Origin: Gemmatimonadales bacterium
GTDB lineage: Bacteria > Gemmatimonadota > Gemmatimonadetes > Longimicrobiales > Gaopeijiaceae
Direction of reading: 5' to 3'
Length of the DNA stretch: 64,000 nt
Assembly (NCBI GenBank): GCA_007695225.1
Contig: REED01000076.1
Location: forward strand, 1,309 to 65,308
Below the pieces are notes generated by a model, which was given only the letters and a program-made list of their open reading frames with translations, made no database searches and had not been told where the DNA came from. The stretch's first letter is position 1, and each line of letters opens with the position of its first letter. Below, one piece after another: positions 47,035 through 62,729 of the stretch. The translations under genes and the position numbers were made by a program.

Positions 47035-47251
47035 CAGAGAGACCACCTGCTCCCAGGATCCGGCGTCGATGAGGAAGACACTGGACCAATCGGGGCCGGA
47101 TCCATAGGTTCAAGGGCTGTGGATCCCATGTCCGGCGGCGGGGTAGAAAGGCCCGTTGAGGAGAGGATAGGAATCGTACATGACGGCGGGGTCGACACTG
47201 AGGCCTGGATATGGCCTCACACCCCGGCGCCCCGTAAGGAGATAGATCGCG

Positions 47252-48160
47252 ATGGCCAGCACTTCCCAGAAGGGACGTCGAAAGAAGAAAGGGCGTTCCG
47301 GGAGCCCCCTGGGCGGGTTTGACGCCAGCCTGGATGAGCAAACCGCCCTGGATCAGTACCTCCGGGATGTGAGCCGGCATGAACTCATCACCCCGGACCG
47401 GGAGAAGGAGTTGGGCGCGCTTGCCCAGGCCGGGGACGAGGAAGCCGTCCAGGAGCTGGCGCGGGCGAACCTCCGCTTCGTCATCAGCGTAGCCAAGAAG
47501 TACCAGAACCGGGGGGTCTCCCTAACCGACCTGATCCAGGAAGGAAACGTTGGACTGGTGACGGCTGCCCGGAAGTTCGATCCCGAGCAGGGGGTGAAGT
47601 TCATCTCCTACGCCGTTTGGTGGATCCGGCAGGCCATTCTGGCCGCTCTGGCAAACCATGGTCGTTCGGTCCGGGTCCCCCTCAACCGGGCCTCGGATCT
47701 GGCTCGGATCTTCCGGGAGAAGGAGCGGCTCAAGCAGGAGCTGGGTCGGGAACCCAACCCCGAAGAGCTGAGCGCTGCAACCGACCTCACTCCGGAACTC
47801 ATCGAGTCGCTCCAGACGTTGAACGCGGCGGAGATCCGGTTGGACGCCCCCATCGGGGACAGCGAGGACTCGCAACTGGTGGAGCGCTTCATCAACGAAG
47901 AGGCGGCTGAGCCCGAGCAGGACGTGGAAGGCCGACTCCTCTCTGAAGCCGTCCGGGGAGCGCTGGATACGCTGGAGGCTCGGGACGCCAAGGTCCTGCG
48001 CCTGTACTTCGGGCTGGATGGGGAGCGGGAGCACACCCTGGAGGAGATCGGGAACATGCTCGGGGTCACCCGGGAACGAATCCGCCAGCTCCGGGACCGG
48101 GCCCTACGGCGACTCCGGGAGGGGGAGAAGGGCGACGCGCTGGAGTCCTTTGCCGCCTGA
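47252..48160 (+). CDS. RNA polymerase sigma factor, sigma-70 family (paralogue of the gene at 34174-35034)
   Basis: AAGGAG lies 8 nt upstream of the ATG. Region 2 is ANLRFVISVAKKYQNRGVSLTDLIQEGNVGLVTAARKFDPEQGVKFISYAVWWIRQ. Region 4 is LEEIGNMLGVTRERIRQLRDRALRRLR. Confidence 0.9.
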   Translation: MASTSQKGRRKKKGRSGSPLGGFDASLDEQTALDQYLRDVSRHELITPDREKELGALAQAGDEEAVQELARANLRFVISVAKKYQNRGVSLTDLIQEGNVGLVTAARKFDPEQGVKFISYAVWWIRQAILAALANHGRSVRVPLNRASDLARIFREKERLKQELGREPNPEELSAATDLTPELIESLQTLNAAEIRLDAPIGDSEDSQLVERFINEEAAEPEQDVEGRLLSEAVRGALDTLEARDAKVLRLYFGLDGEREHTLEEIGNMLGVTRERIRQLRDRALRRLREGEKGDALESFAA

Positions 48161-48181
48161 TCCGTTGCGTCTTCCCAATTC

Positions 48182-48234
48182 CGCTCCGGCCCCCCGTTCC
48201 AGCTTCGTGCTGAAGCGGGGGGCCGGAGCGTTTT
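48182..48234 (+). terminator. intrinsic terminator after the sigma-factor gene
   Basis: A perfect 15-bp stem, CGCTCCGGCCCCCCG ... CGGGGGGCCGGAGCG, with an inner 4-bp stem (CAGC/GCTG), followed directly by TTTT. Confidence 0.75.
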
Positions 48235-48310
48235 CATATCCTATGTCGCGGGGGAGCGGATGAGGGCGTCCGGAAGAGCCCATCCAGGGGGAGCCCACCC
48301 AGGCCCGGCC

Positions 48311-49279
48311 ATGGAGGGCGTGGTCCTGGAAAGCATCGGCGGCGTCTACCGGGTCCTGCTGGGGAGCGACGATCCCGGGGAGGAGCGAGGGGAAAGGCCA
48401 GGGGAGGTGCCAGGGGAAGAGCCGGGGGAAGAGCCGGGGGCGGGCAGGATGGTGGACGCTTTCCTCCGGGGCCGGCTGAAGCAGGAACGGCGGACGGGGG
48501 ACCGGGTCGTGGCCGGCGACCGGGTCCGGGTCGGCCAGGGGGAGGATGGCACCTGGACGGTGGAGGAGGTCTTCCAGCGACGCTCCGAACTCGTCCGGGC
48601 GGGACCCGGAGGGCACCGTCCCAAGGTGGTGGCCGCGAATCTGGATCGGGTCGTGGTCGTGGTGTCCGCCGATCATCCGCCCCTTCGTCGGGAGCAAGTG
48701 GATCGATTCCTGGCCTTGGCCGAAACCTGCGGGTTGGAAGGGGTGCTCGTGGTGAACAAGGCGGATCTCGCCGGAGATGCGGGGGCGCTGGCGGAGGTGG
48801 TGGAGCTCTATCGCGGGATCGGCTACACCGTCCTGCCTACCAGCGTGATGACGGGAGAGGGGCTGGAGCCCTTCGGCCGGATCCTCCACCAGGGGATCAA
48901 TGCCCTGGTGGGCCCTTCGGGAGTGGGAAAGTCGTCGCTCCTGAATGCATTGGCACCGGGGCTCTCGCTCCGGGTGGGGGAGGTTACCGCTCGGCTCAAG
49001 TCTGGACGGCACACCACGGTTGGAGCTCGCCTCCTCCTCCTTCCCGGGGGAGGGAAGGTCGTAGACACTCCCGGGTTCTCCGATGTGGGCCTCTGGGGCG
49101 TGGACCCTGCCGCCCTCCCCGAGGCCTTCCGGGAGTTCCAGTCCCTGGCGGAGGCGTGCCGGTTCCGGGGATGCTCCCACGTGCATGAACCGCAGTGCGC
49201 CGTCCAGGCGGCAGTGGAGGAAGGGAAGATCGACAGGGGCCGCTATCAGAGCTATCTGGACCTTCAGGCCGGGGATTGA
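48311..49279 (+). CDS. rsgA: ribosome small-subunit-dependent GTPase A
   Basis: Circularly permuted GTPase motifs VVNKADL, GPSGVGKSSLLNAL and DTPGF. The zinc knuckle is CRFRGCSHVHEPQC. Start at ATG 48311 (MEGVVLESIGGVYRV). Confidence 0.92.
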   Translation: MEGVVLESIGGVYRVLLGSDDPGEERGERPGEVPGEEPGEEPGAGRMVDAFLRGRLKQERRTGDRVVAGDRVRVGQGEDGTWTVEEVFQRRSELVRAGPGGHRPKVVAANLDRVVVVVSADHPPLRREQVDRFLALAETCGLEGVLVVNKADLAGDAGALAEVVELYRGIGYTVLPTSVMTGEGLEPFGRILHQGINALVGPSGVGKSSLLNALAPGLSLRVGEVTARLKSGRHTTVGARLLLLPGGGKVVDTPGFSDVGLWGVDPAALPEAFREFQSLAEACRFRGCSHVHEPQCAVQAAVEEGKIDRGRYQSYLDLQAGD

Positions 49280-50106
49280 TCCGGGTCCGGGGACCGATCC
49301 CGGTCTGAGCCGGACTTCCATCCCCGACTCCGGCTCCCGGGGATGATCCGGGGCGTACCGGTCTCCGGGTCCATGCGCACCGCTACCGGCCACTGATAGA
49401 CCTCCTCCAGGATCCCTTCCTGTAGAACCTCTCCCGCCGTTCCCTCCGCCGCCACCCGCCCCTGGTTCAGGAGCAACAGCCGATCGGAGAAGCGGGCTGC
49501 CAGGTCCAGGTGGTGGGTGATGAGGAGGACGCTGATCCCCCGGTCCGCCGAATCCCGGAGGAGGCCCAGGATCTCCATCTCGTGACGGATATCCAGGGAG
49601 GCGGTGGGCTCGTCCAGCACCAGGGCCCTGGGCTCCTGGGCCAGCGCTCTGGCGATGCGTACCCGCTGAAACTCCCCGCCGGAGAGGGTCCCCACTTCCC
49701 GGCGTGCGAGTGACATGGCATCGCAGCGTTCCAGGGCGGCCCGGACTGCAGCCCGGTCATGAGGGCCCTCGCGGCGAAGCGCGCCCAGATGGGGATACCG
49801 CCCCATGGCCACCAGTTCCCGGACGGTGATGGGAAAGGCCACCGTCTCGGTCTGGGTCACCGCCCCCACGCTCCGGGCGAGTTCCCGACGATCCCACCCC
49901 TCCAGGGGTCGTCCGTCCAGTCGCACCTCTCCGCCTGCCAGGGGAACATTCCCCATAAGGGCCTTCATGAGAGTGGACTTCCCTGAGCCGTTGGGTCCCA
50001 GCACGGCGTGAAGGGTGCCGGGAAGGACGCGGACCGAGACATCCGCGAGGGCAGGCCGTTCGGCGCCTGGATAGCGAACGGTGAGCCGCTCTCCCTCCAG
50101 GATCAT
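49264..50106 (-). CDS. ABC transporter ATP-binding protein (iron-siderophore/cobalamin type, FecE/BtuD-like)
   Basis: Walker A GPNGSGKST, signature LSGGEFQR, Walker B LVLDEPT. The ATG at 50106 overlaps the permease stop (ATGA). The longer 497-aa ORF-track version is an out-of-frame read-through over the permease gene. Confidence 0.9.
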   Translation of the reverse strand: MILEGERLTVRYPGAERPALADVSVRVLPGTLHAVLGPNGSGKSTLMKALMGNVPLAGGEVRLDGRPLEGWDRRELARSVGAVTQTETVAFPITVRELVAMGRYPHLGALRREGPHDRAAVRAALERCDAMSLARREVGTLSGGEFQRVRIARALAQEPRALVLDEPTASLDIRHEMEILGLLRDSADRGISVLLITHHLDLAARFSDRLLLLNQGRVAAEGTAGEVLQEGILEEVYQWPVAVRMDPETGTPRIIPGSRSRGWKSGSDRDRSPDPDQSPA

Positions 50107-51101
50107 GCCCTCAGGCTCCGTCGAAGGAGGAAGAGAAAGAAGGGGACGCCGATGAAGGCGGTGATGACCCCGATGGGGATCTCGGTCGGCGCAAGGGCCG
50201 TGCGGGCCACCAGGTCCGTGATGGTGAGAAACGCTGCGCCGGCAAGGAAGGAAAGGGGAAGGAGGGTGCGGTGGTCCGGTCCGGTGAGGAGTCGGACGGC
50301 ATGAGGCACCACGAGCCCCACGAAGCCGATAACGCCGGTGAAGGCCACTCCGGCGGCCGCCAAAAGGGAGGCCACGCCATACGCAACCCGCTTCGTCCGC
50401 TCGACCTCGGTGCCCAGGTAGCTGGCGGTCTCCTCTCCGATGGCCATGACGTTGAGCGCCCGGGCCAGTCCCATGAGGAGAAACGCCGCAGGCAGGGTAT
50501 AGACCGCCACAATCGCCACCGTCCGCCATCCGGCGCCGGACAGGCTCCCCATCATCCAGAGTATGGCGGTGCGGACGGTGGGGGCGTCGGAGAGGGAGAG
50601 GATGAGGGCGATGCACGCCGAGAAGAAGGCACCCACCACCACGCCGGCCAGGAGGAGCACCCGGACATCGAGTCGCCGGTCGGCGGAGGCGGCTACCCCG
50701 AAGACCAGTGCAATGGCCAGCAACGCTCCTCCAAAGGCGGCGCTGGGCAGAAACCATGAGGCGGCGGAGGCGAGGCCCAGGGCAAGGATGGCCACCACCC
50801 CTGCCGCGGCACCCCCCGAGATGCCCAGGATGTAGGGCTCTGCCAGGGGGTTGCGGAGGAGAGCCTGGAGGACGGCACCGGCAAGCGCCAGTCCACCGCC
50901 GACCAGCATTCCCAACAGGACCCGGGGAAGGCGAAGCTCCAGGACGATGAAACGGGCAGAGGCATCCCCTCTCCCGGCCAGAATGGCGAGGATCTCCTGG
51001 GAGGTCAGGTGGACCGCACCGAAACGAACCCCCAGGATCCCGGCAAGGAGGACACAGGCAAGGAGGGTGATGGCCATTCCCTTGGCAGGGATTCTCACCA
51101 C
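50103..51101 (-). CDS. FecCD-family ABC permease (BtuC/FhuB-like)
   Basis: About 9-10 TM helices with typical FecCD segments (LELRLPRVLLGMLVGGGLALAGAVLQ; GVIGFVGLVVPH). Confidence 0.9.
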   Translation of the reverse strand: MVRIPAKGMAITLLACVLLAGILGVRFGAVHLTSQEILAILAGRGDASARFIVLELRLPRVLLGMLVGGGLALAGAVLQALLRNPLAEPYILGISGGAAAGVVAILALGLASAASWFLPSAAFGGALLAIALVFGVAASADRRLDVRVLLLAGVVVGAFFSACIALILSLSDAPTVRTAILWMMGSLSGAGWRTVAIVAVYTLPAAFLLMGLARALNVMAIGEETASYLGTEVERTKRVAYGVASLLAAAGVAFTGVIGFVGLVVPHAVRLLTGPDHRTLLPLSFLAGAAFLTITDLVARTALAPTEIPIGVITAFIGVPFFLFLLRRSLRA

Positions 51102-51997
51102 CCCCGCTCCGGGTGGATCACCCGGGCCACCTCCACGGCGGAGGACCCTACCCGATGTCCAGGTGCCTGGACGTCCGTTGGCACCCGTCGAAGGGGCAGG
51201 TGGGCGAGACCCGAAGGGATGCCGACGCCGTCGGGAGCCAGGAGGAGGGTCGGAGCACGATAGATCACCTCCTCTACGCTCACCGGTGAGTAGAGGGGGC
51301 CCACATCGCCGAACACGTTCTCGCCCCCTGCTACCTCTATGAGTTCATGAAGAAAGGTGCCCCGTCCGGCCACCCACGGGGGGTCGCCGCCCAGAATGAA
51401 GGCGACGCGGACCGGTGGCTCCCCTTCCACCAGTCGCCGCACCCGATCGAGTTCCCCATCCATGAGTGTCAGGAGGCGCTCGCCCTCCTCCGTTGCATCG
51501 GTGATTCGGGCCAGGGTCCCGATCATCCGCCGGATATCCCCGATGGTATCCGGACGCACGGCGATATGCTGGATGCCCGCCGCATCCAGGGCAGCCGGAG
51601 TGGCCTGGTCGGATTCACCATCGAAGCGAACGACCAGGTCCGGGGCAAGCCCCACCAGTCGCTCCACCGAGGGATGCAATCCACCCCCCACCGAGGGGAG
51701 GTGGGACAGCTCCGGGTCCAGGTCGTAATCGGTTCGGCCCACCAGCCGATTCCCCTCCCCGAGGGCCTGGAAGATCCCGGTGGCCGCCGGGACGAGGGAG
51801 ATGATGCGGAGGGGTTCCTCCTCGAGAAGCACCTCCTGGCCGGCGTCGTCCCGCAGGGTCAGGGGATATGGGCTGTCCTCCTCTGGGACGGCCGGGGCGG
51901 GCGGTGGCTCCCCTTCGCCACACCCTGGCAGGGGCAGGAGAAGGGTGGCGAGGAGAAGGAGGGGGGAGAGGGCCCGCATCCGGACCGCGGGCCACAT
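51095..51997 (-). CDS. periplasmic binding lipoprotein of the ABC importer (BtuF/FecB-like, PBP type 8)
   Basis: Lipobox LLLPLPGCG. Typical segments are PLRIISLVPAATGIFQALG, PDLVV and the vicinity of GGENVF. The start is either ATG 51997 (sharing 1 nt with the upstream stop) or ATG 51979. Confidence 0.8.
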   Translation of the reverse strand: MWPAVRMRALSPLLLLATLLLPLPGCGEGEPPPAPAVPEEDSPYPLTLRDDAGQEVLLEEEPLRIISLVPAATGIFQALGEGNRLVGRTDYDLDPELSHLPSVGGGLHPSVERLVGLAPDLVVRFDGESDQATPAALDAAGIQHIAVRPDTIGDIRRMIGTLARITDATEEGERLLTLMDGELDRVRRLVEGEPPVRVAFILGGDPPWVAGRGTFLHELIEVAGGENVFGDVGPLYSPVSVEEVIYRAPTLLLAPDGVGIPSGLAHLPLRRVPTDVQAPGHRVGSSAVEVARVIHPERGW

Positions 51998-53034
51998 CAG
52001 TCCCAGCCGCGAAGGGCGCCAGTGGCCGGTGAGACGCCACATGCGTCCTGGTACCGGAGCCCCCATTCCCCTTCCCGCTCCCCGAGGATGGCAAGCCAGC
52101 GTTCCTCGGTGCCGAAGACCTCCAAGATTAGCTCCGGCTCCCCCTCTTCCCGGAGAAGGCCCGCCGCCCGGAGGCGGGGGAATGCCTTCCCCTGACGTGC
52201 GGTCTGATACCAACTCCAGAAAGGCCGCCACTGGTCACCGTCCCTGCGGCCCAGGGCGAAGAGCCCGTAGCCGGTGACGGCGGGAGTTCCCACGGAGAGA
52301 TCATCTCCGAAGACCAGGCTGGCGGCCAAGGCCTCTCCACCGTCATCGAGGGTGAAAGAACGGGTGTCCCGGAGGATGTCGGGGATGGCCGGGGGCCAGG
52401 GGACATCCGCCCGGGGGATGATGAAGCGGGCCAAAGAGAGAGCTCCAGCCTGTCGGACTGCGGCTGTACCCGCCCCCGGGTGGGGCACCACGGCAAGGGG
52501 GCGGGGGGAGAAGCCGCCGGATTCCACGTCGGCCTTCCGGACGGCGAAGAAGACCTGACCGCCCTCGGCACCGGGGCGAAGCTCCACGGTGCCCCGTCCC
52601 GCGGGCCGGATCCCACAGTAGGTGCTGTCGGCCTCCACGGAGCCGTCACTGATCAGGGTCCCGGCCCGCATTCCCCGATCCATCAGGACGAATTCCGTTC
52701 CTTCCTCCCATCGCTGCAACGGGAACCGGGGGAGGAGATCAGGGGTCTCCCCGACATCGGGAAGGGCCTCGTAGGTCCCGTTCCGCCACTCGGCCACGGG
52801 GAGGAATCGGCCGGCGGCTCCGCTCCGGTCCACCAGGTAGACCAGGGGTCCCAGCTCAAGGGGTTCAGGGGGCCGTTCCTCGGATTCCAGTTCCGTATCC
52901 GGGAGGAGCGAGGAGGGGGGCGGGGGAGGTGGGCGCAGTATGACGTCCAACCCGCCCCAGCTTACGTTGTCGCACCCGGGGACGAGCGTCAGGATCACGC
53001 AGACGGCAAAGAGGGAAAAACCCTTGAAACGCAT
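51997..53034 (-). CDS. hypothetical lipoprotein, first gene of the BtuFCD-like operon
   Basis: The ATG at 53034 gives MRFKGFSLFAVCVILTLVPGC (signal peptide plus lipobox). The stop abuts or overlaps the binding-protein start. I recognise no family. Confidence 0.6.
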   Translation of the reverse strand: MRFKGFSLFAVCVILTLVPGCDNVSWGGLDVILRPPPPPPSSLLPDTELESEERPPEPLELGPLVYLVDRSGAAGRFLPVAEWRNGTYEALPDVGETPDLLPRFPLQRWEEGTEFVLMDRGMRAGTLISDGSVEADSTYCGIRPAGRGTVELRPGAEGGQVFFAVRKADVESGGFSPRPLAVVPHPGAGTAAVRQAGALSLARFIIPRADVPWPPAIPDILRDTRSFTLDDGGEALAASLVFGDDLSVGTPAVTGYGLFALGRRDGDQWRPFWSWYQTARQGKAFPRLRAAGLLREEGEPELILEVFGTEERWLAILGEREGEWGLRYQDACGVSPATGALRGWD

Positions 53035-53157
53035 AAGGTATTGGAGTACAGAGGAGGGCGGGGGGCCCATCCCGGCTGGGGAGGAATCCTTCTCCGGGAT
53101 CCGGAAGGGGAAAGCTACCCTGAACCGATGGGGGACGCAAAGCAGCGGGGAGCGGCC

Positions 53158-53703
53158 ATGATCGACCCGGGCCGACTCCGGGAGGCCATGGGTCGCTTCG
53201 CCACAGGTGTGACGGTGGTGACGGGGCGGCGCACTTCTGGAGAGTGGGTGGGGTTCACCGCCAACTCCCTCACATCGGTTTCCCTGGATCCCCCGCTCGT
53301 ACTGGTCTGTGTGGACCGGGCGTCGTCCTCTCGGGATGCCCTGCTGGAATCAGGTCGCTTCGCGGTATCCCTGTTGGGGAGGGGTCAGGAGGATGTGGCC
53401 CGGCGCTTCGCCGGCAAGGCCCAACGGGATTCCCGCTTTGAGGAGCTTTCCGTCCGGGCGGGCCGGGAGGGGGTGCCCATCCTGGATGGAGCCATGGCCT
53501 GGCTGGACTGTCGAATCTGGGAGGTGGTGGAGGCGGGGGACCATACAGTGCTCTTCGGTGCCGTGGAGATGGCCGGGACCGACGAGGATCCAGAGGACGA
53601 GGCGAACCCGGGGCCTGGGCCTGAGTCGCAACGGGTCCCCATCCAGCGGGGGGCAGATCCCCTGGTCTACTACCGGGGAAAATTCGGGACCCTGGCTTCG
53701 TGA
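53158..53703 (+). CDS. flavin reductase-like (HpaC/NADH:FMN oxidoreductase family) protein
   Basis: AMGRFATGVTVVTGR...GFTANSLTSVSLDPPLVLVCV...F.VSLL is the flavin-reductase-domain pattern. The ATG at 53158 has GGGGAG about 7 nt upstream; an alternative ATG is at 53128. Confidence 0.8.
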   Translation: MIDPGRLREAMGRFATGVTVVTGRRTSGEWVGFTANSLTSVSLDPPLVLVCVDRASSSRDALLESGRFAVSLLGRGQEDVARRFAGKAQRDSRFEELSVRAGREGVPILDGAMAWLDCRIWEVVEAGDHTVLFGAVEMAGTDEDPEDEANPGPGPESQRVPIQRGADPLVYYRGKFGTLAS

Positions 53704-55070
53704 CGGCCTCAAGCTGGAAGGGGGTGGCCCCCGCTTCCCTCCTGGGATTTTCCCTGGCTGTATCGAGCCAGGTGGCGGCGGGCCTCCTCCTGTATGGGGG
53801 GCCGGGGTTCATTCCGGCGTTGGCGGTGATCCTGGCGGTGGTCTTCCTTTCCTTGGGCGCAGGGTTGGCGGCCCCGCCCCCCCAGGGCACCGGTGAGCGG
53901 ATGATCGAGGAGGCCCGACGGCGTTGGCTGATCACCCTCCTGGCCTTCACCATGGCGGCGGCCTTTGCCGCCGGCTGGGAGATCTTCCGGGGCTTTGGCG
54001 CGCTGGGGATCACACAGGCCGTGGGCCTGGCGGTGCTGGGGGCTCTACCGGCCTATACCGGCGGCCGGACGCTGGGCATGCTGGCACACCTCTCCGGCCT
54101 GGAAGGCGCCCGGGGCCCGGCGTTCCCAGCGCTGGCGGGTGCCTCCGCAGGCGCATTGGTCCTGGCATACATCCTTTTTCCGACGCTATCCCCGACTGCG
54201 GTCATCCTTATCTGCCTCCTGGCCGTTTCTGCCGGCGCGCTGGTCCATGGGCTGGCCCTGGACGATGGAGTCCGGGTCGAACCCCTGGCGGGGTGGGAAG
54301 GGGGGGACGGACGGCTGGAAGTGGAGCGATGGATCCAGGCCTCGTCCCGGCAGATCCGGGTGGCGGTCCGTGAGGATGGACGGCTCAGGGTCCTCCGAAC
54401 GAGCGATGGGGCTCCGGTGCTCCCGGAGGAGCGAGCGGTAGAGGGAGATGTCCTCCGTTGGGGTCCGGCTCCAGGGCGGGTCCTGGCATTGGGGCTGGCG
54501 GCGGGGATGATGGGTGGGCGGTTGGCCGCCCCCCCCGGCGGGGTAGAACTCACCATCGTGGACCAGGCTCCGGAGCGGTTGGAGCGGTTGCTGCAGGCCC
54601 TGGAATGGGGAGAAGTGGACCGAGTTCGGCGGTTGGTCGCGGACCCGGGAGTGTTCCTTCAGCGAGGGGTCGGCCCGCTCGCGCCGGGGGGCGCGGATTG
54701 GATCGTGGTGGACGCCCTGGCCCTGGGTGCTACCGGGGCCTCGGCGCGCATCCCTCCCGGGGGGTTTCTTCGCCTGCGAGAACTCCTGAGCCCCAATGGG
54801 ATTCTCGTGGTTCTTCCCCTGGAGGAGGGCGAGGGGGCGGAGAGTCTCATGGAGCGGTTCCATGGGGCGGGGAAGGTTTTCGACCGGGCCGCGCTCTATC
54901 TGGGACCCCGGGGCGGAGAGGAAGTGGCAGGCGCCCCGCCCTCCGGGGGATGGCCTCGATTCCCCATGGCGCCAGGGGCCCGCAGGGGCTTTCTGGTGGC
55001 GGCGAGATCTCCTGGGATCGGTTGGCCTGAATCGGTGGAGGGATTCCTCCAGGTCCCCGTGGGGAGCTGA
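53700..55070 (+). CDS. membrane protein with a C-terminal spermidine-synthase-like (class I methyltransferase fold) domain
   Basis: The GTG at 53700 overlaps the flavin reductase stop (GTGA). The N-terminal 200 aa or so form about 6-7 TM helices. The C-terminus VLALGLAAGMMGGRL...ELTIVDQAPERLERL...ADWIVVDA...LLSPNGILVV follows the spermidine-synthase layout, but the Gly-rich loop is atypical. Assignment is from pattern only. Confidence 0.55.
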   Translation: MTASSWKGVAPASLLGFSLAVSSQVAAGLLLYGGPGFIPALAVILAVVFLSLGAGLAAPPPQGTGERMIEEARRRWLITLLAFTMAAAFAAGWEIFRGFGALGITQAVGLAVLGALPAYTGGRTLGMLAHLSGLEGARGPAFPALAGASAGALVLAYILFPTLSPTAVILICLLAVSAGALVHGLALDDGVRVEPLAGWEGGDGRLEVERWIQASSRQIRVAVREDGRLRVLRTSDGAPVLPEERAVEGDVLRWGPAPGRVLALGLAAGMMGGRLAAPPGGVELTIVDQAPERLERLLQALEWGEVDRVRRLVADPGVFLQRGVGPLAPGGADWIVVDALALGATGASARIPPGGFLRLRELLSPNGILVVLPLEEGEGAESLMERFHGAGKVFDRAALYLGPRGGEEVAGAPPSGGWPRFPMAPGARRGFLVAARSPGIGWPESVEGFLQVPVGS

Positions 55071-55078
55071 GGACTCCA

Positions 55079-57538
55079 GTGCGCCTCGTCCACCTCTCCG
55101 ACCTCCACCTGGGATTTCGGTCCTTTCCCCGCAGGGAACGGGGGTGGAACCTGCGGGAGCGGGATCTGGCCACCACCTTCCATCGGACCATTCAGGAGAT
55201 CGCCCGTCATGAGCCCGAGGTCGTCCTCCTCTCCGGAGACCTTTTCGACCATCCGGACCCACCGTCCACCGCGTTCCTCACGCTGTCCCGGGGACTCTCA
55301 ACCCTCCGCGGCCTTCTCCCACAGGTAACCGTGCTGGCCATCGCCGGGGAGCGGGATACCCCCTTCACACCCGCAGACCCGGGTCCTGTGGCGGTTGTGG
55401 ACGCGCTCCCGGGGGTGGAGGCGGCGGCAGGGGCCCCAAGGGCCGTCCATCTCCAGGAGCACCGGCTCCACGCCCTCCTGGTTCCGCACCGCGCCGTCCT
55501 CCGGCCTCCTTTTCCGGAACTCCGCCCGGACCCAGATGCCCGTTGGAATATCCTTCTCCTCCGGGGGACACCGGTGGGAAGGGAGAGGGGGGCGGAGGAG
55601 GACTGGGGGAACGCCGCATCCCTTTCCCGTCTCCCGCAGGTCGACCCGGAGGGATGGGACTACGTGGCCCTGGGGGGGGGGCACCGGCACCGTCTCTGGC
55701 GGAGGCACGTCTGGAGTGCCGGTTCCCTGGACCGGGTGGGTGGCAATCCATGGAGAGAGGCTACCGAGGAGAAGGGTTTCGTACTCTTTGACCTGGTCCG
55801 GGGCGAGGGCGAGTTCCATCCGGTCCCGGGGCGGCCCGTAGTGGATCTTGCCCCGGTCCGTTTGGATCCTCAGGCCCCGGAAGTGGGGGGACGGCGCCTC
55901 CGGGAGGTCCTGGAAGGAATCCCCGGGGGGATCGAGGGAAAGATCGTGCGGATCCGGCTGCAGGGCTCGGTGGATGCCCCTGCAGCGGCCCTTCCCCCGG
56001 GCCTCCTGCGGGCGGTGGAGCGGCGAGCAGCCCATCTCGATGTTCGGGTGGGGCCCGAGGAACCGGAAGCGCCCGAAGCTGGGAAGGCCGGCGGGGAAGG
56101 TGCTGCAACCGGTGTCCGATTGCAGTGGCAGGGAGGTGGAGAGGGCGCGGTGACCCTCGGTCCGGGTCTCTGGGCCCTGGTGGCCGAGGCGGGTGCCGAC
56201 CGAGCCCGGATGGTGGAGGCCCTGAGGGAACAGAACGGGGAGGCGCCCCCGGATCCGGGAGTCCGAGCGCCGAACCTACGTCTTCGACTGGAGGCGCCTG
56301 CTGCCATCCCCGCAGGGATGGCAGGGGCGGTTCCCGGGCAGGTGCAGCTCCTGGACGATGCCGCCGGCCTGTCCCACCTCCTTCGGAGGTTGCAGGACGA
56401 GGGTCAGCGTGGAGGCGATGCCCAGGAAGGATCCCGAGGTCCGGGTGGAGGTCCGGAGGCTGGACACATCTCCGAGGAGGGGGCCGGAAATCGGGGAGAG
56501 GAGAGAATGACGGGCGGGGATCCGAAGCTTCGCTTTCGACTACGGGAGGCCCGGGCCGACTGGGTGGAGGCCGCCGGAGATCTGGAGGCCCGGACCATGG
56601 AGTGGACTCGGGAACGCCAGGAGGCAGATACGCGTCTGCAAACCTACCGGGATCGGGCCCGGGAACTCCGGGGGCGGCTAACGGCCCTGGAGGCCCAGGG
56701 AGCACAGGCCGCCTGCCCAACCTGCGCCCGACCCCTGGCCGAGGCTCACCCCCATCTGGTCCAACTCCTCCAGGAGGAGTGGGAGACGGTGGTCCAGGAC
56801 GGGAAGTGGTGGAAGCGGAGGCGGGAGCAGTTGGAGAACCGACCCGAGGACCTCCGGGAGCTGGAACGGCAGACGCTTCGACTTCACGCCCGCGTGGAGA
56901 CCCTCTCCGAGGGCGGGGAGGAGGGGGAGGGTACAGAGGGCCGGCAGATCCACGGGCTCGCTCCTGAATCAGGCATCCAGGGGGAAGCCCCCGCGCAGGG
57001 GGGAGCCGCTCTTCCCTTCAGGGTGGACCGGACCTCTCTACGGGCCGCCGGAGAGTTCCTCCGCAGGATCTCGGAAGGGGAGATCCAGGGGCTGACACAG
57101 GAGGTGGACCCGGAGGTGGTTCAGGGGATGACCCCCGGAGACCCCGGTCTCCGTCTCCTCCGGGAGGGGGGCGAGGCGTCGCTTCCTGGCCCCGGTGAGG
57201 CCGCCTTCCTTGCCGCCGCGCTTCTCCTCGCCGGACTTCAGAGACCCGCACCCGTGCCGGGTGGGCGGAATCGGGTGGGGCTCATGACCGCTCTGTCGGG
57301 TGCAGAGGGCGATCTGCGCGCCGTGCGGACGCTGGAGGTCATGGCCGACGCGACCCTGCCGTGGCCCGTCCTCGTGGTGCTCCCTCCGGCCCTCCTCACT
57401 CGCTGTCCTGAACTCTTCCAGGGGACCGTGGAGCTCCTCCGGGATGATGACGGTAGGCTGCGTTTCCGTGCGTCACCCGGCGGGGTGGCATGGATCCATC
57501 TGCACCCCCTCCCCGAGGACTCCCTGGAAAGCTGTTGA
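55079..57538 (+). CDS. SbcD/Mre11-like phosphoesterase fused to an SbcC/Rad50-like coiled-coil/zinc-hook region (atypical, degenerate motifs)
   Basis: The GTG at 55079 has GAGGA 7 nt upstream. N-terminal motifs are LVHLSDLHLG, SGDLFDH and YVALGGGHRH. The mid and C-terminal part is a heptad-like Arg/Glu/Leu-rich region centred on CPTC, then LSGAEG. One uninterrupted frame of 819 aa with normal codon appearance. Confidence 0.6.
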   Translation: MRLVHLSDLHLGFRSFPRRERGWNLRERDLATTFHRTIQEIARHEPEVVLLSGDLFDHPDPPSTAFLTLSRGLSTLRGLLPQVTVLAIAGERDTPFTPADPGPVAVVDALPGVEAAAGAPRAVHLQEHRLHALLVPHRAVLRPPFPELRPDPDARWNILLLRGTPVGRERGAEEDWGNAASLSRLPQVDPEGWDYVALGGGHRHRLWRRHVWSAGSLDRVGGNPWREATEEKGFVLFDLVRGEGEFHPVPGRPVVDLAPVRLDPQAPEVGGRRLREVLEGIPGGIEGKIVRIRLQGSVDAPAAALPPGLLRAVERRAAHLDVRVGPEEPEAPEAGKAGGEGAATGVRLQWQGGGEGAVTLGPGLWALVAEAGADRARMVEALREQNGEAPPDPGVRAPNLRLRLEAPAAIPAGMAGAVPGQVQLLDDAAGLSHLLRRLQDEGQRGGDAQEGSRGPGGGPEAGHISEEGAGNRGEERMTGGDPKLRFRLREARADWVEAAGDLEARTMEWTRERQEADTRLQTYRDRARELRGRLTALEAQGAQAACPTCARPLAEAHPHLVQLLQEEWETVVQDGKWWKRRREQLENRPEDLRELERQTLRLHARVETLSEGGEEGEGTEGRQIHGLAPESGIQGEAPAQGGAALPFRVDRTSLRAAGEFLRRISEGEIQGLTQEVDPEVVQGMTPGDPGLRLLREGGEASLPGPGEAAFLAAALLLAGLQRPAPVPGGRNRVGLMTALSGAEGDLRAVRTLEVMADATLPWPVLVVLPPALLTRCPELFQGTVELLRDDDGRLRFRASPGGVAWIHLHPLPEDSLESC

Positions 57539-57589
57539 AGAAGTCGTGGGGAAGCCGCTGGGAGCGCCCTGTGCTTCCTCAACACCCTT

Positions 57590-59707
57590 CTAGCGGGGTG
57601 AGGGCTCCAGCTCCACCATCCCTCCCTCCGTGCTCCGGAGGCGCCATCCCGGTGGACACCAGGTGGTGGCGCTGTACTCCACCAGGACCGCCGGGCCCGA
57701 CATCCAGACGCCAGCGGGAAGCGCCTCCCGGGAGAGGAGGTGAGCAGCCACCACTTCGCCCCCCATGCGGATGGTTGCCTGGGCGGACTCCCGAGAAGGC
57801 GGAGCCGTACCGGACGCTTGGGCTCTCAAGGGGCCCGTTTCCGCTTCCTCTCCCTCCTGCGTGCCCCGTTGCCCGGCATCCTGCGCCCCCGCCCTGAGCC
57901 CCGCCTCTCCCGGGGCCTCCACTCCAGGAGCCTCCACCCTGACCCGGAGGGTCACCGCCTCCACCGGCTGCGTGGAACGTCGATAGCCGTAGCGCTCCTC
58001 GTGGGCCTGATGGAAGGACTCCTCCCACCCCTCTTCGGGAACGGTGAGCTCCCAACTCTGACCCAGGTAGCGGGCATCCACCTCACGGCGGCGCTGGAGA
58101 ATCGCTGGGGGGAAGCCCTCGTCCTCCAGCTCCCTTCGGGCCTCCGCCTCCATGCGGTCCATGGCCTCACCCAGGCGGGCGCCGTCCTCCATGACGTCGG
58201 AGCGGAGCAGGACGGTACGGGTCCGGTCCCGGACCACCGGCGCCGCCAGCATCCCCCAGGCCGAGGCCAGCCCCGGATCAGGGGGGAGGAGGACGCCCCG
58301 GGCACCAATCCGCTCCGACAACTCTGCGGCGTGAAGGCCCGCCGCTCCCCCGAAAGCCATGAGGTAGAGATCCGAGGGATCCACTCCCCGCTCCACGGAG
58401 ATCACCCGGAGGGCCCGCTCCATGGTGGCATTGGCCACCTGGATGATCCCTTCGGCAGCGTCGTCCGGTGTGGAGCCCACCTGGTCGGCCAGCGCGGCCA
58501 GCGGTTCCCGTATCGCCTCCCGGTCCAGGGCGCGGGTGCCGCCCAGGAACGCGGCGGGGGGGAGGCGTCCCAGCCAAACATGGGCATCGGTAACGGTGAC
58601 CTCGCGCCCTCCCCGTCCATAGCAGATGGGGCCGGGGTCGGCGCCGGCGCTGGCGGGACCCACCTGGAGGGCCCCTCCCGGGTCCACCCGGGCAATGGAA
58701 CCGCCTCCGGCACCCACGGTGTGGATGTCCACCAGGGGGATGGCCACGGGGAGCCCCCCCATTCGGCCCTCCCGGGTATGCAGAAGGCGGCCCGGGACGA
58801 GGGAGACATCCGTGGAGGTCCCGCCCATGTCGAAGGTGAGGAGTTGGGACCGGCGGTGGCGGGAACCCCGGATGAGGGCACCGATGACTCCCCCGGCAGG
58901 GCCGGACAGGACGGTGCGGACCGGTTCCTCCAGGGCAAGGCGGAGGGGCAGGGCTCCTCCTGCCGAGCCCATGATCCGGACCGCCTCCGCACCGGACTCC
59001 GCCTCGAGTCGCCGGAGGTAATGGGCCATTTTCGGGGCCACGTAGGCGTTCACCACCGTGGTGGCCGTCCGCTCGTACTCCCGGAACTCCGGGAGGATGC
59101 GGGAGGATAGGGCTACCGGGACTCTGAGCTCCGCCAGCGCCCGGCCCACCTCCTCCTCATGGCCGGGGTCGGCGTAGCTGTGGAGAAGGCACACGGCCAC
59201 CGCTTCCGCGTCGGCCAGACGTAGGGGGAGCCCTCGAAGCTCCTCGGGGTCCAGGGGCACGATCTCCTCCCCGTCGGGTCCCAGGCGCCCTCGGAGCCCC
59301 ACCCGGTCCTCCCGAGTCACCGGCGGAGGGGCGCGGTGCCCCACCAGGGCGTAGAGCTGCGGCCGGTCCTGGCGCCCGATCTCCACGACGTCCTCGAAGC
59401 CCTCGTTCGTCACCAGCATCACCCGAGCCCCCTTCCGTTCCAGGACCGCGTTGGTGGCCACGGTGGAACCATGGATGAGGAGGAAGGGGGGCCGGGTCTC
59501 CCTGGGCCCAAGGAAGCGACGGATCCCCTCCAGGACGCTGGCGGAGGGATCGTCCGGGGTGGAAGGGAGCTTCAGGGCGGTGAGGACGCCATCCCGGAGG
59601 AGGAGGAGGTCCGTGAAGGTTCCCCCCGTATCCACGGCCACCACCGGGAGCACGTCCCCGGGGCGGGAGGAGGCCTGCGTTGACTTCCCCTCTCCGGCGG
59701 CGGACAT
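57590..59707 (-). CDS. hydantoinase/oxoprolinase family protein (HyuA-type, A subunit)
   Basis: N-terminus VVAVDTGGTFTDLLLL with hydantoinase_A-like sequence throughout. Start chosen at ATG 59707 (MSAAGEG); alternatives are 59752 and 59779, and the latter would overlap the trpE start. Confidence 0.8.
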   Translation of the reverse strand: MSAAGEGKSTQASSRPGDVLPVVAVDTGGTFTDLLLLRDGVLTALKLPSTPDDPSASVLEGIRRFLGPRETRPPFLLIHGSTVATNAVLERKGARVMLVTNEGFEDVVEIGRQDRPQLYALVGHRAPPPVTREDRVGLRGRLGPDGEEIVPLDPEELRGLPLRLADAEAVAVCLLHSYADPGHEEEVGRALAELRVPVALSSRILPEFREYERTATTVVNAYVAPKMAHYLRRLEAESGAEAVRIMGSAGGALPLRLALEEPVRTVLSGPAGGVIGALIRGSRHRRSQLLTFDMGGTSTDVSLVPGRLLHTREGRMGGLPVAIPLVDIHTVGAGGGSIARVDPGGALQVGPASAGADPGPICYGRGGREVTVTDAHVWLGRLPPAAFLGGTRALDREAIREPLAALADQVGSTPDDAAEGIIQVANATMERALRVISVERGVDPSDLYLMAFGGAAGLHAAELSERIGARGVLLPPDPGLASAWGMLAAPVVRDRTRTVLLRSDVMEDGARLGEAMDRMEAEARRELEDEGFPPAILQRRREVDARYLGQSWELTVPEEGWEESFHQAHEERYGYRRSTQPVEAVTLRVRVEAPGVEAPGEAGLRAGAQDAGQRGTQEGEEAETGPLRAQASGTAPPSRESAQATIRMGGEVVAAHLLSREALPAGVWMSGPAVLVEYSATTWCPPGWRLRSTEGGMVELEPSPR

Positions 59708-59767
59708 TGCGACGCCTTCACTCCTGCCATCATTCCCTTTCTCCTTCGCCATCTGCGCAGATCCTCC

Positions 59768-61279
59768 ATGGAGTTTCAACCTTCCCCTTCCCGGTTCCGG
59801 GAGCTGGCCCGGGAATCCCGGGTGGTCCCGGTGTGCGGCGAGTTCCTATTTGACCTGGACACGGCTGTCACCGCTTACCACAAGCTGGCCCGGCCCCCCT
59901 TCGGTTTCCTCCTCGAGTCGGTGGTCGGAGGTGAAACCTGGGCCCGGTACACCTTCCTGGGAACCGATCCGGCCGCGGCGTGGCGCCTGGATGACGGTCG
60001 GGTCTCTTGGTGGACGCCGAAAGCGGGGTGGATTCCGGTGGAGACCGATGACCCCCTGGCGGACCTGGATCGCCGGCTCCGAGAGCGCACACCGGCGGAA
60101 ATCCCCGGACTTCCCCGTTTCTGGGGAGGAGCGGTAGGGTACTTCGGATACGACGTGGTGCGCCAGGTAGAGCGACTCCCCCATCCTCCCGGGGACGACC
60201 TGGGGCTCCCAGACGCGGTGGTGGTCTTCACCGATGTGGTGCTGGCCATCGACAACCTGCGGGGGCGGGCCATGGCCATCGCCGCCGTTCCCGTCTCGCC
60301 CGAGCTCGACGACGAGGCTCTCGATCTCCGCTACGAGGATGCGAAGAGCCGAATCCAGCAGATGGTGGCCCGCCTCCGGGATGAGTCGCCCCCGCTTCCC
60401 CTGACGTTGACAGCCGAGCCCGAGGGGGATCCTCCCTTCAGTAGCACCTTTGCCCAGGTCGACTTCGAGGCAGCGGTGGAGCGGGTTCGGCAATATATCC
60501 TGGCGGGAGATGCCTTCCAGGTGGTTTTGAGCCAGCGCCTCGAGATGGCACTGCGGGCTCGCCCTTTCGATCTATACCGGGCGCTCCGGACCCTGAATCC
60601 TTCCCCCTACCTCTATTTCCTGGAGATGGATGGGGTGACCCTCGTGGGATCCTCTCCCGAGGTCCTCACCCGAGTGGAAGAGGGGCGGGTCACCGTCCGT
60701 CCCATCGCCGGGACCCGTCCCCGGGGTTCTACGCCCGCACAGGACCGGGAGTTGGAGGAGGACCTGAAGGCGGACGAGAAGGAGTTGGCCGAACACCGGA
60801 TGCTGGTGGACCTGGGGCGCAATGACGTGGGAAGGGTGGCCCGCTACGGAACGGTCACCGTGCCCGACCTCATGGTGGTGGAACGCTATTCCCACGTCAT
60901 GCATCTGGTCTCCCAGGTGGAGGGGGAACTCCGGGAGGGGCTGTCCGCCATGGATGTCCTGCGGGCGTCTTTCCCAGCTGGGACCGTGTCCGGCGCCCCC
61001 AAGATCAGGGCCATGGAGATCATCGATGAGCTGGAACCGGTGCGGCGGGGCCCCTATGCCGGGGCGGTGGGCTACCTGGGGTATGGGGGGACGACCATGG
61101 ATACCGCCATCGCCATCCGTACCGTCCTGGTAGCCGGTGGAAGGGCCTATGTGCAGGCTGGCGCGGGGATCGTGGCGGACTCGGATCCTGAGCGGGAATA
61201 CGAGGAGACGCTGAACAAGGCCCGGGCCCTTCTCCGGGCGGCGGCCATGGTGGGGGAGGGATCCGGCGCCGGGGAGTGA
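59768..61279 (+). CDS. trpE: anthranilate synthase component I
   Basis: 503 aa. The N-terminal Trp-feedback region is VPVCGEFLFDLDTAVTAYHKL...FLLES. The chorismate-binding domain has LVGSSPE, GTVSGAPK and GPYAGAVGYLG. Confidence 0.93.
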   Translation: MEFQPSPSRFRELARESRVVPVCGEFLFDLDTAVTAYHKLARPPFGFLLESVVGGETWARYTFLGTDPAAAWRLDDGRVSWWTPKAGWIPVETDDPLADLDRRLRERTPAEIPGLPRFWGGAVGYFGYDVVRQVERLPHPPGDDLGLPDAVVVFTDVVLAIDNLRGRAMAIAAVPVSPELDDEALDLRYEDAKSRIQQMVARLRDESPPLPLTLTAEPEGDPPFSSTFAQVDFEAAVERVRQYILAGDAFQVVLSQRLEMALRARPFDLYRALRTLNPSPYLYFLEMDGVTLVGSSPEVLTRVEEGRVTVRPIAGTRPRGSTPAQDRELEEDLKADEKELAEHRMLVDLGRNDVGRVARYGTVTVPDLMVVERYSHVMHLVSQVEGELREGLSAMDVLRASFPAGTVSGAPKIRAMEIIDELEPVRRGPYAGAVGYLGYGGTTMDTAIAIRTVLVAGGRAYVQAGAGIVADSDPEREYEETLNKARALLRAAAMVGEGSGAGE

Positions 61280-61308
61280 GGCTTGTCCGTCCGGACCCGC
61301 CGGATCGC

Positions 61309-61378
61309 ACTTGCCGGTCAGTACTTGCCGGTCGGTACTTGCGGGTCAGGACTTGCGGGTCAGGACTTGCGGGTCAGG
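61309..61378. repeat. 14-bp tandem repeat, five copies
   Basis: ACTTGCCGGTCAGT, ACTTGCCGGTCGGT, then ACTTGCGGGTCAGG three times (61309, 61323, 61337, 61351, 61365). The last copy contains the stop codon (61374-61376, minus strand) of the M20 peptidase gene. The repeat begins 30 nt after the trpE stop. Confidence 0.9.
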
Positions 61379-62729
61379 ACCTCAGAGAGGTGTAGAAGGA
61401 GAGCAGTGTCTGGATCCCCTTCTCCAGATGGGCCTCGGGGAACCACTCGTCCGGAGCGTGCATATTGGAGCCTGGGAGGGCAAACCCCAGCAGGACAGCG
61501 GGTGCGCCCAGGATCCGCTCGAACTCCGGGACGATGGGGATGGACCCCCCCTCGCCGGTGAGGACGGGCTCCACGCCGAAGGTGGCTTCGAGGGCCTCCC
61601 GGGCTGCTTCGAAGAAGGGCCCACCGGGGCGGGCCCGCCAGGGATGTCCGCTGTGAAGCTCCTCCACTTCCACGGATACGTGGGGGGAGGCCACCTGGGC
61701 CACATGATCCCGGAGGAGGGCCACCACCCGCTTCGGATCCTGGTCCGGCACCAGGCGAAAGCTCACCTTGGCCATGGCCTCTGAAGGAAGGACCGTCTTC
61801 GCCCCCTCTCCGGTGTAGCCCGAGAGGAGTCCGTTCACCTCGCAGGTGGGGCGGACCCAGAGTTGCTCCAGGGGGGTCCACCCGGTCTCGCCGTGGAGAC
61901 CGGGAGCCCCGACCCCCTCCCGGAATGCCTCCGGTGAAAACGGAAGGGTTCGGATCCCCTCCAGCGTCTCCTCATCCCATTCCACCACGTCGTCATAGAA
62001 GCCGGGGATCTGGATGCGTCCCCCTGCGTCGTGCAGGGAGGCCAGGATCCGAGCCAACTCGGTGGCCGGGTTGGGAACCGCTCCCCCGTAGGCCCCGGAA
62101 TGCAGGTCCGAACGGGGTCCCCGAACCCGGATCTCGGTGTAGGCCAGCCCCCGAAGGGAGAAAAGGAGGGAGGGAAGCCCCTCGGCAAACATGGCGGAGT
62201 CGGAAATGATCACGGCGTCGGCCGCCAGACGTTCCCGATGGCGCTCCACGAAGGGAAGCAGATGGGGAGACCCGATCTCTTCCTCTCCTTCGGCCAGGAA
62301 GATCACGTTCACCGGGAGGGGACCCTGGGAAAGTAGGATCTCAAGGGCAGCCACGTGGAGGAAGACCTGTCCCTTGTCGTCGGCCACCCCGCGGGCGTAG
62401 ATCCGACCGTCCCGAACCGAGGGCTCGAAGGGAGGGGCGGTCCAGAGTTCCAGTGGCTCGGCAGGCTGGACATCGTAGTGCCCGTAGATGAGAAGGGTGG
62501 GAGCCTCGGGGCCGGCCTCTTGCCATTCCCCCAGGACCACCGGGTGCCCAGGGGTTTCCAGGATTTCTGCCGCCATTCCGGCCCGCTCCAGGCGGTCCCT
62601 GAGCCATACCGCTGCCGCCCGTGTGTCGTCCTTGTGCTCCCTACGGGCGCTGATGGACGGGATGCGGAGAAACTCGAAAAGCTCCTCCCGGAGGCGGGGG
62701 AGGAGCGGGGAGAGGGAAGGATGGGACAT
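61374..62729 (-). CDS. M20-family metallopeptidase (dipeptidase/ArgE-DapE-CPG2 family)
   Basis: LLIYGHYDVQPAEPLELWTAPPFEP...GRIYARGVADDKGQ and FLAEGEEEIGS are the M20 metal-ligand motifs. 451 aa. Confidence 0.88.
   Translation of the reverse strand: MSHPSLSPLLPRLREELFEFLRIPSISARREHKDDTRAAAVWLRDRLERAGMAAEILETPGHPVVLGEWQEAGPEAPTLLIYGHYDVQPAEPLELWTAPPFEPSVRDGRIYARGVADDKGQVFLHVAALEILLSQGPLPVNVIFLAEGEEEIGSPHLLPFVERHRERLAADAVIISDSAMFAEGLPSLLFSLRGLAYTEIRVRGPRSDLHSGAYGGAVPNPATELARILASLHDAGGRIQIPGFYDDVVEWDEETLEGIRTLPFSPEAFREGVGAPGLHGETGWTPLEQLWVRPTCEVNGLLSGYTGEGAKTVLPSEAMAKVSFRLVPDQDPKRVVALLRDHVAQVASPHVSVEVEELHSGHPWRARPGGPFFEAAREALEATFGVEPVLTGEGGSIPIVPEFERILGAPAVLLGFALPGSNMHAPDEWFPEAHLEKGIQTLLSFYTSLRS

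Follow-up and report, generated by a model that had tools for sequence, protein, structure and literature searches.

The gene considered here raises the question of what a protein of the Mre11-Rad50 (MR) type can be doing when the catalytic motifs of both its halves have been replaced. It lies on the forward strand of a 64,000-nucleotide (nt) stretch of contig REED01000076.1 from a Gemmatimonadales bacterium (assembly GCA_007695225.1), and this whole stretch is called the window. An earlier note on the sequence had proposed that the gene encodes, in one chain, an Mre11/SbcD-like half followed by a miniature Rad50/SbcC-like half, and profiles, structure prediction and family comparison agree with this. 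Our reading, on which we are evenly divided, is that the protein is a single-chain descendant of SbcD-SbcC, a paralogue present throughout the Gemmatimonadota that has lost its ATPase chemistry and would serve as an ATP-independent, hook-linked scaffold. The positions of the features discussed are collected in Table 1.

The frame 55079-57538 (+) has no internal stop and gives 819 amino acids (aa) from a GTG codon, in a window of about 67% G+C. This start fits the N-terminus of the family (MRLVHLSDLHLG), and 8 nt separate the gene from the preceding open reading frame (ORF). The same 819-aa ORF was recovered from three independent assemblies (ENA ERZ27301262, ENA ERZ27301261 and NCBI GCA_003564555.1). 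An assembly frameshift is therefore excluded, and the single uninterrupted frame that had been claimed is confirmed. The 90% cluster to which the protein belongs has seven members, among them TVR55781.1 ('hypothetical protein [Gemmatimonadales bacterium]').

The N-terminal half is recognizable as Mre11/SbcD both by profile and by predicted structure. Pfam Metallophos matches the window protein at E=2e-5 (25.6 bits, above the gathering cut-off of 21.5), and the NCBIfam Mre11/SbcD equivalog models match residues 1 to ~130, all of them far below their cut-offs (TIGR00619, sbcd, scores 33.5 against a cut-off of 77.65). A profile of 39 family members finds the Mre11 structures of M. jannaschii (E=1e-17), P. 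furiosus (1e-11) and T. maritima (2e-10) in the PDB, and E. coli SbcD at E=1e-7. The AlphaFold2 model of the window protein has a mean predicted local distance difference test score (pLDDT) of 79 and a predicted template modelling score (pTM) of 0.70. When it is searched with Foldseek, the best match of the first ~330 residues is 4tug_C (E=1e-13 over ~350 columns, with a template modelling (TM) score of 0.68 relative to the target), and the top 50 matches of the N-terminal half are all Mre11 or SbcD.

The nuclease motifs lie where the earlier note had placed them. Motif I (HLSDLHLG, aa 5-12) and motif II (SGDLFD, aa 52-57) are present and align with Mre11/SbcD, as does YVALGGGHRH (aa 195-204) at motif V/VI, and the alignment bears out IAGERD (aa 88-93) at the position of GNHD and ILLLRG, with R163, at motif IV. 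The window protein keeps D8, H10, D54 and H202; GERD (aa 90-93) replaces GNHD, and where motifs IV and V should have His it has R163 and G200. The four retained residues are kept in >95% of the family copies (D8 in 77 of 80, H10 in 78 of 80 and D54 in 77 of 81). The motif III Asn (position 91) occurs in none of 83 copies, with Pro in 32, Ala in 22 and Glu in 19, and the position of the catalytic His (92) holds Arg in 78 of the 83 and His in a single copy, while the following Asp (D93) is kept in all but one of the 83. Motif IV varies across the family (His in 38 copies, Arg in 24, the clade of the window included, and Tyr in 18) and motif V has Gly in 65 of 86. We take D8, H10, D54 and H202 to be the ligands of metal site 1, and the lost residues to be the ligands of metal site 2 together with the general-acid His; both assignments follow the P. 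furiosus Mre11 structure reported by Hopfner et al. in 2001, and our literature search did not confirm them. One metal site is thus dismantled and the general-acid His replaced, and canonical two-metal cleavage is therefore unlikely.

Pfam, SMC_N and AAA_23 included, gives no match at E≤1 to the C-terminal 480 aa of the window protein, and the NCBIfam Rad50 model PRK03918 matches the protein at E=6.5e-5 but with only 21 of the 700 bits that its cut-off demands. The Rad50-like half, when turned into a family profile, aligns residue by residue with the C-lobe of P. furiosus Rad50 (3qkr_B, E=6e-8). A separate model of residues 340-819 (pLDDT 76) retrieved only heads of the structural maintenance of chromosomes (SMC)-type ATP-binding cassette (ABC) class with Foldseek: RecN (1.4e-7), Smc (4.9e-7), condensin, cohesin and Rad50 (1.5e-5). 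The C-lobe matches P. furiosus Rad50 with TM scores of 0.62-0.68 relative to the target and a root-mean-square deviation of ~4 Å (for 1f2u_B, 0.68 and 3.7 Å). The N-lobe is modelled as strand-strand-strand-helix, and AEAGADRAR lies between a predicted strand and a helix. In both halves of the protein the similarity goes well beyond what chance would produce.

The columns of the ATPase motifs were set by a relative with intact motifs, the mini-Rad50 P0214 (GENGAGKST, VSGGDED, LLLLDEPFGTLD and LIATQD), and this register was confirmed by hidden Markov model (HMM) alignment to P. furiosus Rad50 and by hhalign (99.5% probability). At the P-loop position, where the earlier reading had put VTLGPGLWALVAEAGADRARMVEAL, AEAGADRAR aligns column for column with GENGAGKST of the intact relative. 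Because hhalign aligned only the coiled coil and the C-lobe of the family with the intact mini-Rad50, this Walker A correspondence rests on hmmalign, on the predicted strand-loop-helix and on the whole-head Foldseek matches. Two other placements have to be shifted by one motif. LSGAEG (aa 739-744), which had been taken for the signature, is put by the HMM and hhalign alignments with P. furiosus Rad50 and the intact relatives at the Walker B/D-loop, and PVLVVLPP (aa 763-770), which had been taken for Walker B, is the H-loop strand in the alignment; the Walker B position itself reads GLMTAL. Despite these shifts the absence of all the ATPase motifs stands. There is no GK[ST] and no SGG among ~90 family copies. 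The Walker A Lys position is Arg in most Gemmatimonadota copies, the signature is SEEDL-like or more divergent across the family, and the H-loop His is absent from the family copies. Since the P-loop Lys/Ser, the signature, the Walker B carboxylates and the H-loop His are all missing, the protein should be unable to go through the ATP-driven engagement cycle by which Mre11 is controlled in canonical complexes.

The coiled coil presents a different picture. CPTC centres a predicted antiparallel helical hairpin (aa 482-615), in agreement with the central CxxC that had been noticed in a heptad-like stretch, and it is the predicted zinc hook, placed where the two arms meet. Every family copy has CPxC without exception, and comparison across the family agrees with an altered nuclease site and a retained hook. 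Pfam Rad50_zn_hook matches 8 of 16 family members (best E=4.8e-6), the window protein not among them. The hooks of Rad50 are matched at E≈0.1 with the profile of the Rad50-like half and at 0.005-0.012 with the full-length profile; a PDB search with the single sequence reached a Rad50 hook at E≈0.8 only, so the family profile is needed. The coiled coil also carries a basic/aromatic motif specific to the family, VVQDGxWWKRRREQLE.

The ratio of nonsynonymous to synonymous substitution rates (dN/dS) between close pairs is 0.06-0.31, and the family is therefore not in decay. Median values by region are 0.08 for the Mre11-like domain, 0.10 for the coiled coil with the hook, 0.13 for the C-lobe and 0.26 for the N-lobe. 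To call the motifs eroded, as had been done, is misleading: the substitutions are a conserved derived state (the His to Arg change again, 78 of 83) and all regions are under purifying selection. Columns that are ≥90% conserved make up 60% of the hook, 27% of the Mre11-like domain, 26% of each coiled-coil arm and ~1% of each head lobe. In Rad50/SbcC the head is usually conserved and the coiled coil variable. The pattern in this family inverts the usual one; the protein is still maintained, but the emphasis has moved to other parts of it.

Searching 5.8 billion proteins gave 222 homologues. Of the 120 that were listed, almost all have a length of 700-850 aa and align over most or all of it, and those with names belong to the Gemmatimonadales, the Longimicrobiales or the Gemmatimonadota. 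An exhaustive profile search with the Rad50-like half gave 834 representative clusters with E≤1e-3, of which 117 reached E≤1e-30. When one genome was scanned for each species, the protein was encoded in at least 564 stretches, of which the best 80 are Gemmatimonadota metagenome-assembled genomes (MAGs) and one 4-kb contig labelled Planctomycetota. That contig (DATKBQ010000623.1, 4.2 kb, locus L049) carries a fused gene of the Longimicrobiales type (GGGGRARRA / SEEDLA / EEPFDRLD) and is probably mis-binned, rather than a sign of the family outside the Gemmatimonadota.

Separate HMMs for each half sorted the 88 loci into 56 with a fused gene, 29 split and three partial. At the split loci the Mre11-like gene directly precedes the Rad50-like gene, and the two either overlap in different frames (by 4 nt in L008) or part at a single in-frame stop (L025, L072 and L081). 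The single-stop pairs could reflect a very recent split or fusion, stop-codon readthrough or sequencing error, and some of the split calls in long-read MAGs could be frameshift errors. That the split form is real is confirmed by the many clusters of 440-570 aa that stand alone; it has also been met in several other, independently assembled MAGs, in read-archive contigs and in many independent protein clusters. Two separate genes with intact motifs had been named as the finding that would overturn the fused, degenerate protein. Separate orthologues do exist, but their motifs are degenerate too. As the split Mre11-like partners are already degenerate, the remodelling of the motifs is not a consequence of fusion. 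A neighbour-joining tree, a rough guide only, which was made from a short alignment and rooted on canonical SbcC, shows two large clades composed entirely of fused genes, that of the window and the Longimicrobiales type. Between them stand the split forms, which are paraphyletic and include a few scattered fused genes. On this rough tree fusion has therefore occurred at least twice. A helical insert of ~45 aa between the cap and the N-lobe (columns 395-445) is absent from the clade of the window and is kept by the split Mre11-like proteins (for example at the C-terminus of L008:4398-5537) and by the Longimicrobiales-type fusions. It may correspond to the Rad50-binding helix-loop-helix, which the covalent link would have made redundant.

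A canonical sbcD-sbcC operon found in the phylum (L090) encodes proteins of 398 and 820 aa, is surrounded by other genes than the family and keeps all the catalytic motifs (DxH, GD, GNHD, MHGG, GHYH, GPNGAGKST, SGGEED, LLILDE and ITH). Homologues of these two proteins are labelled Gemmatimonadaceae, Gemmatimonadales or Gemmatimonas, and cultured Gemmatimonas is among the carriers of sbcDC. The family HMMs match the SbcD of L090 at E=4.5e-62 and its SbcC at 4.8e-33, values that no Mre11 or Rad50 in the PDB comes near, and the family shares with this SbcC the hook and its flank, W-x-R-[DE]-RQEAETRL...CPTCGRPL. Paralogy with the SbcCD of the same lineage is therefore the best reading of the family. 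The folds and their order are the same in both; however, the canonical pair consists of two polypeptides with a much longer coiled coil, whereas the window protein is a single chain that lacks every ATPase motif and half of the nuclease ligands.

At three loci (L007, L089 and L091) the syntenic slot of the family holds a mini-Rad50/SbcC in which Walker A, the signature, Walker B and the CPTC hook are all intact. These proteins (P0214, P0252 and P0221) match the family at E=1e-34 to 1e-42 by HMM and with a probability of 99.5% by hhalign, and they branch first in the tree. They resemble the family in locus, short coiled coil, CPTC hook and a Q-D-x-x-W motif, but P0214 keeps GENGAGKST, SGGDED and LLLLDEPFGTLD and the family does not. 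There is no Mre11/SbcD-like ORF near the mini-Rad50 genes of L007, L089 and L091 on either strand; a hook-bearing Rad50 without an adjoining nuclease partner is unusual in its own right.

Fusions of Mre11 and Rad50 have been described before, in Mimivirus (R555), on plasmids of C. kluyveri and Deferribacter, in Bacillus phage 0305phi8-36 and in several eukaryotes (Yoshida, Claverie, Ogata 2011; PMC3175470). In those fusions, as in the window protein, the Mre11-like part is N-terminal and the Rad50-like part C-terminal, which fits the topology of the MR complex. They largely keep their catalytic motifs, are long (R555 has 1351 aa) and are sporadic, with links to viruses, plasmids or transposons. 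In contrast, the present family is short, motif-poor and phylum-wide and occupies a fixed locus in the core chromosome; none of the fusions listed in that paper is from the Gemmatimonadota. The earlier note had known of no characterized example of a fused, motif-degenerate form. The fusion as such is not new, but a conserved core-genome form remodelled in both halves was not found in the literature searched. Our literature search retrieved no MR-like protein of the Gemmatimonadota, no Rad50/SbcC pseudo-ATPase, and no MR paralogue conserved across a phylum that combines missing ATPase motifs with a remodelled nuclease site.

Table 1. Positions of the features discussed, in the window unless a locus is named.
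Feature	Position (nt)	Residues (aa)	Strand	Basis or remarks
Whole gene, fused Mre11-like/Rad50-like protein	55079..57538		+	GTG start, 819 aa, stop included
Mre11/SbcD-like phosphoesterase-fold domain	55079..55828	1-250	+	Pfam, family profile, Foldseek, motif table
Remodelled motif III, IAGERDTP	55340..55363	88-95	+	Family consensus A-G-[PAE]-R-D-T-P
Mre11-type capping domain	55829..56059	251-327	+	Foldseek match covers nuclease and cap; pLDDT 86-93
Disordered linker at the fusion junction	56060..56113	328-345	+	pLDDT <50 for aa 328-343; alignment
Rad50/SbcC-like head, N-lobe	56114..56416	346-446	+	Model, alignment to P0214, Foldseek
Degenerate P-loop, AEAGADRAR	56183-56209	369-377	+	Column alignment to GENGAGKST of P0214
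Gly/Glu-rich low-complexity insert	56417..56521	447-481	+	Variable; predicted disordered, pLDDT 29-36; no column ≥90% conserved
Predicted antiparallel coiled coil	56522..56923	482-543, 554-615	+	AlphaFold2 helices, pLDDT >90; ~60 residues per arm
Predicted zinc hook, CPTC	56714-56725	546-549	+	Between the two helices
Family motif, VVQDGKWWKRRREQLE		571-586	+	Within the coiled coil
Rad50/SbcC-like head, C-lobe	57029..57508	651-810	+	Profile, hhalign, Foldseek
Signature position, GPGEAA		704-709		Alignment to P. furiosus Rad50 and intact relatives
Walker B/D-loop position, VGLMTALSGAEG		733-744		Corresponds to LLLLDEPFGTLD of the intact relative
H-loop position, LVVLPP		765-770		QVILVSHD in P. 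furiosus Rad50
Upstream 456-aa ORF	53700..55070		+	N-terminus with multiple transmembrane segments, Rossmann-like C-terminus; variable member of the same apparent operon
Flavin reductase gene	53128..53703		+	Pfam Flavin_Reduct E=1e-44; first gene of the same-strand cluster, conserved phylum-wide
Single-stop split pairs	L025 4081-5628/5632-7053; L072 4291-5592/5596-7017; L081 3738-4991/4995-6110			
Intact-motif mini-Rad50/SbcC (P0214, P0252, P0221)	L007:3161-4669; L089:7001-8491; L091:7001-8467	~490-550 in length		Same syntenic slot

The gene order around the family is the same throughout the phylum: sigma-70, RsgA, an ABC/FecCD/periplasmic-binding-protein transporter, flavin reductase, a variable transmembrane ORF, the focal gene, hydantoinase, trpE and an M20 peptidase. 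This neighbourhood persists where the focal protein has fallen to 37% identity, and the locus is a vertically inherited part of the core genome. In the window (~47000-62700) and in L001-L006 the syntenic block covers ~15 kb, has an extracytoplasmic function (ECF) sigma factor after the M20 peptidase and is unusually stable in its gene order. The start of the flavin reductase gene (~53128) was estimated from the gene calls of homologues; the mechanical ORF 52480-53703 (+) has 407 aa, of which just aa 237-405 belong to the flavin-reductase domain, whereas gene calls for homologues give 160-191 aa, and the true start is probably near 53128. The stop of this gene overlaps the start of the 456-aa ORF (53700-53703). 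The latter has no match in Pfam or NCBIfam, and in PADLOC only a weak one to 'mad2' (E=0.002); its Rossmann-like C-terminus resembles an S-adenosylmethionine (SAM)-methyltransferase or a spermidine synthase. This ORF shares an apparent operon with the fusion gene, and the two may be linked in function. The slot upstream of the focal gene is filled in L005, L006, L007, L089 and L091 and empty in L004. In L006 it holds merely a 208-aa ORF, and in L007, L089 and L091 a fusion of a transmembrane part with a short-chain dehydrogenase/reductase (SDR; adh_short), the transmembrane N-terminus of which looks alike by eye.

We suggest, as the most likely origin of the family, that the sbcDC operon of the phylum was duplicated. 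The coiled coil would then have been shortened, the ATPase chemistry lost and the nuclease site remodelled, and at least two lineages would subsequently have fused the adjacent genes. A zinc ion held jointly by two hooks, and probably contacts between the Mre11-like domains as well, would pair two chains into a scaffold that is short, rigid and bivalent. Such a scaffold would not cut DNA; it would bind or tether either DNA or a partner, for instance canonical SbcC. Its likely working parts would be the best-conserved surfaces, namely the hook with the coiled coil and the remodelled pocket of the Mre11-like domain (D8, H10, D54, H202, R92 and D93). That the MR protein is catalytically dead, so that the phylum keeps beside a working SbcCD a mini-MR, repeatedly in single-chain form, with neither ATP hydrolysis nor two-metal cleavage, is a tentative conclusion to which we give slightly less credence than doubt.

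Several points weigh against the scaffold. Its function is deduced from which features of the sequence are conserved and which are lost, and DNA binding is assumed from ancestry. D8, H10, D54 and H202 with the conserved Arg could equally fit an active site that works in an altered way. The partners in the apparent operon, a flavin reductase and a Rossmann-fold protein of the membrane, give no hint of a role in DNA metabolism. Canonical SbcCD is known from the phylum, but its presence beside the family within one genome would be an assumption. Finally, the Walker B D-E and the D-loop are kept in a few split copies (L008 and L086), and nucleotide binding in some unusual mode could persist in parts of the family.

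The active-site residues are the basis of the alternative that survives best, which we regard as possible though unlikely. The Mre11-like domain, with D8, H10, D54, H202, R92 and D93, would be a one-metal or otherwise altered phosphoesterase acting on DNA ends or on some other phosphoester, and the Rad50-like half would be an ATP-independent scaffold for dimerization or positioning. Consistent with this, the Mre11-like half is the most constrained part of the protein (median dN/dS 0.08), the replacements in the active site are themselves conserved (A-G-x-R-D-T-P) and Pfam Metallophos scores above its gathering threshold. However, the Asn of motif III and the His of motifs IV and V are lost or variable, which would be three of the four second-metal ligands in Mre11, and the general-acid His is gone. 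We know of no Mre11-family member that is active with the ligand set retained here.

The likeness of the hook and its flanking helices to those of the phylum's canonical SbcC makes mixed hook dimers conceivable, and the protein might then be a regulator or decoy that restrains or localizes the canonical SbcCD nuclease, either through such zinc-hook dimers or by competing for DNA ends. The common motif W-x-R-[DE]-RQEAETRL...CPTCGRPL, the position of the hook and coiled coil as the best-conserved region and the presence of sbcDC in the phylum, including cultured Gemmatimonas, would all be expected of such a role. Yet arms of ~60 residues would be mismatched with the rods of the 820-aa canonical SbcC, the family has no genomic linkage with sbcDC, and the presence of both in one genome would be an assumption. 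We consider this role doubtful.

A role away from DNA is more doubtful still. It would make the protein a structural or assembly factor for the flavin reductase and the membrane Rossmann-fold protein, with the MR architecture used as a generic dimeric rod. The three genes are on the same strand and closely spaced or overlapping (the fusion gene by its 8-nt gap), and this arrangement is conserved from the intact-motif relatives to the window. Against it, the middle ORF is variable, its Rossmann part being SDR-like or methyltransferase-like according to the locus, and is absent from L004, and since the whole 15-kb neighbourhood is syntenic the adjacency may merely reflect a stable genome. No precedent for such a role is known.

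The shortened coiled coil with its CxxC also recalls the anti-phage system Lamassu, in which LmuB/LmuC, acting with the effector LmuA, are proposed to derive from SbcCD by coiled-coil shortening with the CxxC kept (PMC12663957). The family would on that model be a compact, CxxC-bearing, SMC-like sensor, and PADLOC does give weak LmuB matches (best E=0.015), but these are not significant and are confined to the coiled coil. Lamassu is found in defence islands; the family, in contrast, has no LmuA-like effector gene nearby, its neighbours are housekeeping genes and it belongs to a vertically inherited, phylum-wide block of the core genome rather than to a variable island, and we think a system of this type very improbable. 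Finally, an assembly or frameshift artefact or a decaying pseudogene is ruled out by the three assemblies, the seven cluster members and dN/dS well below 1 in every region, and the 56 fused loci in coherent clades also speak against it, the separate genes at 29 of the 88 loci being its sole support.

The family shows that, within a single lineage, adjacent sbcD-like and sbcC-like genes have fused more than once. In public databases its members are labelled 'hypothetical protein', 'metallophosphoesterase' or 'SbcD/Mre11', and the last of these overstates their capability. The protein is small (~750-850 aa in one chain) and should suit biochemistry and cryo-electron microscopy, and comparators are at hand in the intact-motif relative at the same locus and the canonical paralogue in the same phylum. 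For Mre11-Rad50 and SbcCD a long-standing question is what share of the biology is structural, namely end tethering, hook bridging and signalling through the coiled coil, and what share requires ATP hydrolysis and nuclease activity; it has so far been approached with engineered separation-of-function mutants. The family looks like a natural version of such mutants, in which strong selection acts on the hook, the coiled coil and the Mre11 scaffold and the head is without nucleotide-binding motifs. If the MR protein is indeed catalytically dead, its structural role, be it tethering, sensing or the recruitment of a partner, would be completely separable from its enzymology by evolution, and it would be through its hook, its coiled coil and its remodelled Mre11 pocket that the protein performs the function under selection.

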